Virus record (IMG/VR): IMGVR_UViG_2521172734_000004
Coordinates: 1-7,811 of that record
Source of the DNA: a virus
Taxonomy: Duplodnaviria > Heunggongvirae > Uroviricota > Caudoviricetes
DNA: 7,811 nt
Strand: one strand, 5' to 3'
Shown piece after piece: positions 5,827 through 7,194 of this stretch. Numbering within the stretch: the stretch's first letter is position 1; each line of letters opens with the position of its first letter. The notes under the pieces were generated by a model. The model did not search any database and had not been told where the DNA came from. It saw only the letters and a program-made list of their open reading frames with translations. Both the position numbers and the translations under genes were made by a program.

Positions 5827-7194
5827 ATGACAGTAAAAATTTCTGGCGTGCTTAAAGATGGCACAGGAAAACCAGTACAGAACTGCACCATTGTGCTGAA
5901 GGCCAGACGAACCAGCAGCACGGTGGTGGTGAACACGGTGGCCTCTGAAAATCCGGATGAAGCCGGACGTTACAGCATGGATGTTGAGCATGGTCAGTAC
6001 AGCGTCACCCTGCTGGTTGAAGGTTTTCCGCCTTCACATGCCGGGACCATCACCGTGTATGAAGATTCCCGACCCGGTACGCTGAATGATTTTCTCGGTG
6101 CCATGACGGAGGATGATGCCCGTCCTGAGGCACTGCGCCGTTTTGAACTGATGGTGGAAGAGGTGGTGCGTAACGCAGAGGAGGCGAAGAAGAATGCCGG
6201 AGAGGCGGAGACGTCAGCGAGGAATGCCGGCATATCAGCCAGTCAGGCAGAAGAGAGCGCTGCAAATGCTGACACTTCAGCAGGGGATGCATCGGAGTCA
6301 GCCCGGCAGGCGGCAGAAAGTGCAGCCTCAGCAAAGCAGTCAGAGGAGGCGTCCTCGTCCTCGGCCTCTGCGGCCGCTCAAAAAGCCAGTGAGTCATTAC
6401 AAAGTGCAACAGATGCTGAGTTGTCAAAAAAGACGGCAGAAAGTGCAGCCGGTAATGCAGCCAGGGATGCAACGACCGCAACAGAAAAAGCCCGGGAGTC
6501 AGCAGAAAGCGCACAGTCAGCGGAACAAAGCAGGATAGCGGCGGAAGAGGCCGTAAACCGAATCCCCACCGTGGTGGGACCTCCCGGGCCAAAGGGGGAA
6601 CCGGGGCCCGCGGGTCCTCAGGGGCCGAAGGGAGATAAAGGAGAGCGTGGCGACACCGGCCCGGCAGGGGCAACCGGTGAACGGGGGCCGGCAGGTGATG
6701 CTGGTCCGGCAGGCCCGCAGGGGCCGAAAGGCGACAGGGGAGAGACCGGTCTGACGGGAGCTGCAGGCCCGGCAGGGCCACAGGGACCGAAAGGGGATAC
6801 GGGAGCTGCAGGGCCGGCAGGGCCACAGGGACCGAAAGGGGATACGGGAGCTGCAGGCCCGGCAGGGCCACAGGGACCGAAAGGGGATGCAGGAGTCGCA
6901 GGTCCGGCAGGACCACAGGGACCATCCGGAAGCCCTGACAGCGGGCTGTTTGGTGTCGGTTCTTTTGTTCTTGCGGCGTATTACCAGACGTATTATTCGG
7001 GGGACCGTGCCCCTGGCTCAACTGTTGCCGGGTCATCACTGTCTGCATGCTGCCTTTCGAATGGTACTCCCCTGGTTGCTTCCGGTAATGTGGGGGAGAC
7101 CCGTTTACCGGGCACGTGGCGTGCATGTGGTCCGATGCTATGGACATCATCTCCGGGTATCAGACAGGCAGGATTATTTCAGCGCATATCATAG
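5827..7194 (+). CDS. stf: Side tail fiber protein with lambda Stf-like N-terminal domain, Ala/Ser/Glu-rich stalk, 40-triplet collagen-like domain and short Cys-containing C-terminal tip
   Basis: ORF 5827..7194 (455 aa) with GGTGG upstream of the ATG. The N-terminus [53 protein letters not shown]...[16 protein letters not shown] matches the N-terminus of lambda Stf as I recall it. An uninterrupted run of 40 GXY triplets ([26 protein letters not shown]...GPQGPSGSP) is encoded at nt 6577-6936. The stop TAG 7192-7194 lies inside the ribosome-binding site of the next ORF. Confidence 0.85.
6577..6936 (+). repeat. Collagen-like Gly-X-Y coding tract (40 triplets) within stf
   Basis: Direct translation of frame 1 gives glycine at every third residue for 120 consecutive codons, rich in Pro, Ala, Lys, Asp and Gln. 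Confidence 0.9.
6757..6891 (+). repeat. Three near-identical 45-bp tandem direct repeats (each encoding [16 protein letters not shown]) inside the collagen-like tract
   Basis: Copies at 6757-6801, 6802-6846 and 6847-6891 (ggagctgcaggcccggcagggccacagggaccgaaaggggatacg) differ by 1-2 nt. More degenerate copies flank them on both sides. Confidence 0.85.

Follow-up and report, generated by a model that had tools for sequence, protein, structure and literature searches.

Collagen-like side tail fibres of Escherichia coli prophages, with a trimeric triple-helical shaft and a collagen domain of variable length, were described in 2012 (Ghosh et al., PLoS One 7:e37872, PMC3368898). These EPclPs (enterohaemorrhagic E. 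coli (EHEC) prophage collagen-like proteins) are built from an N-terminal PfN domain, a PCoil region, a collagen-like Col region and a C-terminal domain. In that description PCoil spans 116 amino acids (aa) with Ala, Ser and Glu at 32, 19 and 13%, while Col has Pro in 48% of the X and 7% of the Y positions of its Gly-X-Y triplets, D/E in X, K/R/A/Q/T in Y (Table 4) and a recurring GP(Q/P)-GPK-G(D/E) pattern. Length varies in multiples of three residues in Col and of seven in PCoil. Recombinant EPclA is a trimer with the circular dichroism signature of collagen and a Col melting temperature of 42 °C without hydroxyproline; its shape is that of a dumbbell, the stalk being semi-flexible and its thin portion measuring ~30 nm for 111 residues, and both its PCoil and its PfC C-terminus are trimerisation modules (PMC3368898). 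An EPclB homologue was located at the tail end of the Stx2 phage Sp5 by immuno-electron microscopy (PMC5155283). Here we analyse a related gene in a stretch of 7,811 nucleotides from the IMG/VR virus record IMGVR_UViG_2521172734_000004 (the window), in which a 455-aa fibre protein carries a collagen-like domain encoded in part by 45-bp tandem repeats.

Our reading, to which we give a probability of about 0.88, is that positions 6577-6936 encode a triple-helical collagen shaft, part of a trimeric side tail fibre of the lambda type, in a lambdoid E. coli prophage integrated next to the hya operon, and that the repeat array within this segment gains and loses units and is also a crossover zone. 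An earlier sequence-only reading of the window had pointed in the same direction. Its observation and interpretation were essentially right, and we have trimmed three elements from it: additional repeat copies upstream of the array, a rule that lengths change in multiples of 45 bp, and the description of the shaft as rigid.

A collagen-like shaft on a lambda-type collar

Translation of the open reading frame (ORF) at 5827-7194 yields 40 Gly-X-Y triplets without interruption (aa 251-370), exactly the run that had been proposed. It matches the Pfam family PF01391 (Collagen) with E=9.6e-19, and the probability of 40 in-register Gly residues arising by chance is ~4e-45, Gly making up 7.8% of the remaining fibre protein. 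Pro occupies 55% of X and 7.5% of Y positions, D/E take 27.5% of X and K/R 25% of Y, and Cys, Phe, His, Trp and Tyr are absent from the 40 triplets. Nine (K/R)-G-(D/E) motifs are distributed through Col, one per 15-residue unit.

The identity of the gene as a side tail fibre, also claimed from the letters alone, is borne out by its position after J and lom and by its N-terminal domain. The match to PF08400 (Prophage tail fibre N-terminal) extends over residues 1-133, with E=2.5e-68 and 228.7 bits against a cut-off of 26.6; residues 1-94 match the solved collar structure of Stf, the side fibre of Ur-lambda (PDB 9E7M, chain Ta), with E=9e-49; and PHROG tail fibre families match the protein with E down to 5.7e-136. 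The region between collar and collagen (aa 134-250) contains 30.8% Ala, 19.7% Ser and 12.8% Glu and 6.8% Leu, Val and Ile together, and is predicted to form a coiled coil from the match of this composition to the published PCoil.

The window protein therefore shares with the EPclPs the domain order, including a PF08400 PfN and an Ala/Ser/Glu PCoil of ~116 aa poor in Leu, Val and Ile, as well as the X/Y preferences (Pro mainly in X, D/E in X, K/R in Y, none of the five residues listed above), the GP(Q/P)-GPK-G(D/E) pattern and a place in a prophage tail module. Its C-terminus has no homology to PfC (PF06820), as in the EPclC and EPclD types, and is identical to that of a 467-aa protein from strain 55989. 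Table 3 of PMC3368898 lists EC55989_1078, of 467 aa and from the same strain, as EPclC* (PCoil, one Col and a non-PfC C-terminus). We infer that the window gene is an allele of EC55989_1078, the old tag being connected to RefSeq EC55989_RS05585 by strain, length and architecture. The published Col length for this entry is 140, whereas we count 132 strict GXY residues in the 55989 gene. The window allele is shorter, with 40 triplets in 455 aa against 44 triplets in 467 aa.

The surroundings agree with this assignment. The window holds K (JAB/NlpC-P60), I, J (1613-5008), lom (5076-5675), the fibre gene and a DUF4376 gene, in an order that is, as judged from sequence, the end of a lambda-type tail module. 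In the eight places among the matches listed, in E. coli assemblies, the 455-aa fibre gene adjoins the hya hydrogenase operon, which lies just downstream of it, and J and lom precede the fibre gene wherever the contig extends that far.

A model of the particle can be proposed from these elements. The collar domain would attach the fibre to the tail tip. Association of three chains would rely on the coiled coil together with the C-terminal domain, and a thin hinged stalk, with a collagen part of ~35 nm, would be made up of the Ala/Ser/Glu coiled coil followed by the (GXY)40 helix. At 0.288 nm per residue, the triple helix predicted for Col spans ~34.6 nm and one 15-residue unit ~4.3 nm. Free of hydroxyproline, this helix would be stabilised by Pro in X and by inter-chain salt bridges between the residues of K-G-D/E motifs, which do stabilise collagen helices (PMC11923368). 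Homology to the EPclPs supports a triple helix in the window protein. As for the claim of a rigid, length-adjustable shaft, its length does vary, but the stalk of the family is semi-flexible and, in EPclA, hinged between coiled coil and collagen.

The 85-aa C-terminal domain, which we call PfC2 (aa 371-455), would point outward as the distal end of the fibre, with the co-inherited DUF4376 partner encoded directly downstream. A Pfam search of PfC2 returned no match, PF06820 included, and an AlphaFold2 model of the domain is all-beta with a pLDDT (predicted local distance difference test) of 74. In the full-length relatives examined, PfC2 follows the collagen run. Searching 1.84 billion representatives with HMMER gave five matches, two of them informative, and PfC2 stands after collagen in both; the 50% clustering of this collection probably hides most PfC2 carriers behind representatives with other C-termini. 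A word-index search with the 85-aa domain retrieved fragments only, and no close copy was found in a collection of 50,697 records of sequenced phages. Over its last 84 residues PfC2 is 35% identical to the very end of the distal long tail fibre protein from Klebsiella phage Mexia, a likeness that weakly supports PfC2 as the distal tip. The domain is possibly the trimerisation nucleus as well.

A 45-bp array with in-frame length variation

The 3' third of the collagen-coding DNA is occupied by an array of nearly identical units: over 6754-6923, Tandem Repeats Finder detects 3.8 copies of a 45-bp period (93% matches, score 291). The three near-perfect repeats that had been proposed at 6757-6891 are confirmed: the in-frame blocks 6757-6801, 6802-6846 and 6847-6891 are identical at 44/45, 43/45 and 42/45 positions in pairwise comparison, and each encodes 15 residues, the last of which is T or A. 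Degenerate flanking copies had also been claimed, and only the downstream one stands. There, 6892-6923 matches the unit at 28 of 32 bases (31/45 for the whole block 6892-6936), and the collagen ending GPQGP(S/A)GS(P/S) is common to the PfC2-type fibres examined. The supposed upstream copies were rejected at the DNA level: they agree with the unit at 15-25 of 45 bases, a background shared by any two collagen-coding blocks. What recurs upstream is the peptide GPQGPKGD, at 6613-6636 and 6712-6735, written in differing synonymous codons. Across the three tandem units the codons of this same peptide are identical, a contrast showing that the units arose by recent DNA duplication or that recombination keeps them uniform.

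The expectation that such units would change in number without breaking the frame also held. Alleles with the same flanks, identical or nearly so (99.6-100% for the 44-, 54- and 59-triplet alleles), carry 22, 40, 44, 54 or 59 triplets. We queried complete E. coli genomes with the flanks only, that is, with 300 bp of PCoil (6277-6576) and the 258-bp C-terminal domain (6937-7194). Both flanks occurred together in 10 of 5,426 genomes, belonging to 55989, O104:H4, O111:H21 or JE86-ST02, while the N-terminal flank alone was found in 728 genomes at a median of eight places each. The tracts in the ten genomes have 44 (n=3), 54 (n=2) or 59 triplets (n=5), steps that are all multiples of 45 bp. Indeed, each of these alleles consists of one 12-residue unit, a number of full 15-residue units (three, five and six, respectively) and one terminal unit; the 40-triplet allele of the window has three full units and one terminal unit, and no 12-residue unit. 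PfC2-type EPclC proteins carry the same unit in five or seven whole copies. The tract is in this respect a coding variable-number tandem repeat, with high-identity head-to-tail units and in-frame copy-number differences between near-identical alleles. The predicted helix length of the alleles seen ranges over ~19-51 nm.

The claim that variation comes in multiples of 45 bp is thus correct for the 44/54/59 series and fails for the window itself, for a second allele and for the wider family. Compared with 55989, the window is identical as a prefix through 6759 and as a suffix from 6755, the 55989 gene being 36 bp longer, which places a 12-residue in-frame deletion in a 5-bp CGGGA direct repeat. 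The allele P0001, present on 11 contigs, has 22 triplets and has lost 54 residues (162 bp) between two GPQGPKGD motifs. In the wider family, for which 56 distinct collagen domains were covered, pairs differing by a single indel show sizes across 1-29 triplets and do not favour multiples of five, which rejects the idea that every change in length is a multiple of five triplets. The 45-bp step holds only locally, in the PfC2-proximal array.

Two kinds of event would account for this series. Misaligned pairing of the 45-bp units, through replication slippage or unequal homologous recombination, would add or remove 15-residue blocks, always keeping the frame and the Gly register because each unit is five triplets; and shorter repeats in the collagen-coding DNA would give rise to other in-frame deletions. 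The tract had been called the most likely site of length polymorphism in the window. It remains the main candidate but not the only one. Family members also differ in the length of the coiled coil (6226-6576), a second variable segment, the first residue of the collagen domain in relatives being aa 188, 210, 224 or 251. Among the closest alleles of the window locus the coiled-coil length is constant.

Module exchange, outbreak genomes and assembly

Homology to other fibre genes begins or ends inside the array. The EPclA gene of the Stx2 phage 1717, which has a PfC C-terminus, is 92% identical to the window over 5827-6862 and unrelated beyond. Conversely, the EPclC gene of a pig strain (PS2Canimalfeces12) has a different N-terminal half without PCoil and is 94% identical over 6754-7811, a block spanning PfC2 as well as DUF4376, which travel together as one cassette. 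The near-identical PfN-PCoil-Col halves seen in the best 120 protein relatives are followed by three or more unrelated C-terminal modules, among them a 76-aa PfC, a 134-aa Peptidase_S74-type and an 85-aa PfC2 domain, and E. coli genomes contain a median of two such fibre genes, with up to 15 copies. Since the breakpoints fall in the array (within 6754-6923) and one N-terminal half occurs with several C-termini, the collagen-coding DNA is also the seam along which prophages swap C-terminal cassettes, the array DNA shared with other fibre genes serving as the crossover zone.

It could be argued that this exchange is what the repeat is mainly for, as a homology bridge for the receptor-binding cassettes of co-resident prophages, with copy-number change a neutral by-product. 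The breakpoints, the alternative C-termini, the single block holding PfC2 and DUF4376 and the multiplicity of fibre genes per genome all speak for this explanation, and Ghosh et al. (PMC3368898) likewise ascribe the modularity of the family to inter-prophage recombination. We rate it at a little short of even odds. It is compatible with our preferred reading, as it acts on the same substrate, but it leaves unexplained why a near-perfect tandem array stands next to PfC2 in several lineages.

A different explanation is raised by the 2011 O104:H4 outbreak clone. In seven complete genomes of this clone the prophage is the same and occupies one chromosomal site, with 59 triplets in five of them (C227-11, 2011C-3493, FDAARGOS_349, FDAARGOS_403 and an rpoS mutant) and 44 in the other two (HUSEC2011 and FWSEC0009). 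The HUSEC2011 allele equals the C227-11 allele minus exactly 135 bp, or three units. Loci homologous to window 6754-6936 include L009, L012, L013 and L015 with 59 triplets and L010 and L014 with 44. This disagreement reflects either real variation within the clone or repeat collapse in two assemblies. If real, the exact 135-bp block would fit a fast contingency locus, altered even inside one clone and supplying a phage population with fibres of mixed length. We find this unlikely: in the 59-triplet allele, 157 bp recur exactly at an offset of 135 bp, within a 292-bp perfectly periodic tract, which is the type of tract that short-read or hybrid assemblers collapse, and the lineage of the window itself shares one allele on at least 24 contigs. 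A further proposal, in which a rapidly mutating array changes fibre length within a clone, the length (~19-51 nm) is tuned to O-antigen or capsule depth and the repeat number sets host range, strikes us as distinctly improbable. A literature search for O104:H4 and collagen tail fibre variation found no paper in the library covered.

Annotation of this locus is uneven. In three O104:H4 genomes, RefSeq annotation by the Prokaryotic Genome Annotation Pipeline labels the fibre ORF, which is intact at 512 aa (59 triplets), a pseudogene with the remark 'missing C-terminus' (L009 3001-4539; L012 and L013 1501-3039), and in a fourth genome the same sequence is a normal coding sequence.

The repeat count of the window could itself be an artefact of a draft contig start, the true locus having more or fewer units. 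The window is identical in sequence to the draft E. coli contig AIHQ01000013.1 (GCA_000250535.2), begins 2 nt from the end of that contig and has three 1-bp insertions relative to near-identical loci; many draft assemblies break within the repeat; and the O104:H4 assemblies of a single clone differ by 135 bp. We nevertheless give this explanation very little credence. At least 24 contigs of independent assemblies, from isolates as well as metagenomes, encode exactly this 455-aa protein, and the complete 55989 genome shows no mismatch to window 6755-7811 (and two in the 3 kb upstream), having exactly the same array from 6755 onward. Furthermore, base differences distinguish the three units, the longest exact repeat is only 45 bp, so that ordinary reads can order the units, and the 36-bp difference from 55989 lies at the array edge with unique sequence on its flanks. 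The sequence-only reading had named an assembly artefact among the things that would overturn it; from the identical product on independent contigs and the identity with 55989 we conclude that the array in the window is real.

A cluster of 95 'partial' collagen-like or phage tail proteins (P0121-P0139), starting inside the collagen repeat and ending in this C-terminal domain (window ~6750-7194), indicates that many draft E. coli assemblies break at the collagen tract. An exact-sequence cluster look-up did not return the 455-aa protein, although the contig index contains it.

Several points weigh against the reading of a variable triple-helical fibre shaft. Both the triple helix and the assembly of the window protein into virions are predictions, and any functional or adaptive effect of fibre length is, like the slippage or recombination mechanism, conjectural. 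The difference from the nearest relative is 36 bp and family indels comprise any number of triplets, which makes unit slippage one of several routes. The 44 and 59 triplets of O104:H4 may be due to repeat collapse in two assemblies, and the prophage may be defective, as gene I is split by a 1-bp insertion. In contrast, sequence anatomy, homologies, allelic series and mosaic boundaries are observed directly.

Features of the locus and comparison with known fibres

Coordinates of the features are collected below.

Features of the fibre locus (positions in the window; all on the + strand)
Feature	Positions	Strand	Basis
Side tail fibre gene, 455 aa, EPclC*-type prophage collagen-like protein (collar, coiled coil, collagen, PfC2)	5827-7194	+	ORF, Pfam PF08400 and PF01391, PHROG
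PfN, lambda-Stf-type N-terminal collar domain, aa 1-133	5827-6225	+	PF08400, PDB 9E7M match
PCoil, Ala/Ser/Glu-rich low-complexity stretch, aa 134-250, 117 aa	6226-6576	+	Composition
Col, 40 uninterrupted Gly-X-Y triplets, aa 251-370	6577-6936	+	Translation, Pfam PF01391
Junction of 36-bp in-frame deletion (12 residues) relative to 55989, in 5-bp CGGGA direct repeat	6755-6759	+	
Three near-identical 45-bp tandem units, copy-number-variable part	6757-6891	+	Pairwise identity, Tandem Repeats Finder
Terminal diverged 15-residue unit, closing the collagen domain	6892-6936	+	Partial match, homologue endings
PfC2, 85-aa C-terminal domain, aa 371-455	6937-7194	+	AlphaFold2, homology
DUF4376 gene, 202 aa, in tfa position	7203-7811	+	PF14301 E=1e-16; phrog_1141 E=1.2e-79

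An AGGAGG Shine-Dalgarno sequence overlaps the TAG stop codon of the fibre gene (7192-7194), just before the DUF4376 ATG at 7203, an arrangement that suggests translational coupling of the two genes. For the identical DUF4376 gene in 55989, the RefSeq start call is longer and overlapping. On the minus strand, a 366-aa antisense ORF (6050-7150) spans the regions coding for the coiled coil, the collagen and the C-terminal domain. A Pfam search with it gave no match, and we read it as the shadow of a GC-rich, periodic coding strand (72% GC in the collagen tract).

Upstream, the lambda tail-assembly gene I is a single gene of ~210 aa in other strains, and in the corresponding region of the window (880-1552) the 1-bp insertion at 1008 splits it into ORFs 880-1119 and 1139-1552. 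Three single-base insertions (15, 77 and 1008) separate the window from the near-identical loci L002 and L003. With the window starting this close to a draft contig end, a sequencing error is as likely an origin for the frameshift as a real pseudogene.

The locus matters in several ways. The repeat tract breaks or collapses draft assemblies, complete genomes of an outbreak clone differ by 135 bp at it, and intact genes are flagged as pseudogenes. The collagen-coding DNA as a seam for C-terminal cassettes bears on the host range of toxin-carrying phages, and the allelic series of 22-59 triplets is a ready set for testing fibre length against adsorption.

In the Klebsiella phages Mexia and PWKp16, which are T4-like, the C-terminus of the distal long tail fibre aligns with PfC2 over 84 residues, to the last residue, and a small assembly gene follows directly downstream, as DUF4376 does here; their C-terminus is not preceded by a collagen domain. 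A relationship between DUF4376 and the Klebsiella phage tail fibre assembly protein is not supported (E=0.009 over 39 aa), and the DUF4376 gene, which matches PF14301, matches no Tfa family; the gene downstream of lambda Stf encodes a Tfa chaperone of the Caudo_TAP type.

BclA of Bacillus anthracis is also a trimeric collagen-like filament with a C-terminal trimerising cap, and its strain-specific GXY number sets the filament length (Sylvestre et al. 2003, cited in PMC10470788). BclA (PDB 1WCK) matches the fibre protein in the collagen part only (E=5e-11); unlike the window fibre, it is a glycosylated spore surface protein with unrelated terminal domains. The likeness is one of analogous mechanism and not of shared family.

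The tail tip of Ur-lambda is encircled by twelve collar domains that bear four side fibres, each a trimer, and these fibres make adsorption faster; the Stf collar binds the gpV/gpM junction of the tail tip (PMC12617516). The window fibre has a homologous collar, for which tail-tip binding is predicted, lies in the same position after J and lom and is expected to be trimeric. Beyond the collar the two proteins differ: lambda Stf has Pf2 repeats, a gp37-like distal rod and an OmpC-binding tip, whereas the window fibre has a PCoil and collagen shaft with a PfC2 tip, and a Pfam search of it found no match to PF03406 (Pf2 repeat). By its domains, the window gene is therefore a fibre in the position of Stf and with the collar of Stf, and not a full-length Stf orthologue.

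The EPclPs are the systems to which the window gene belongs by domain order, composition and position. Their biochemistry was carried out on EPclA and EPclB, with a PfC C-terminus, and not on the PfC2 type. Ghosh et al. do not discuss a 45-bp DNA unit, slippage (the word occurs 0 times) or variation within a lineage.

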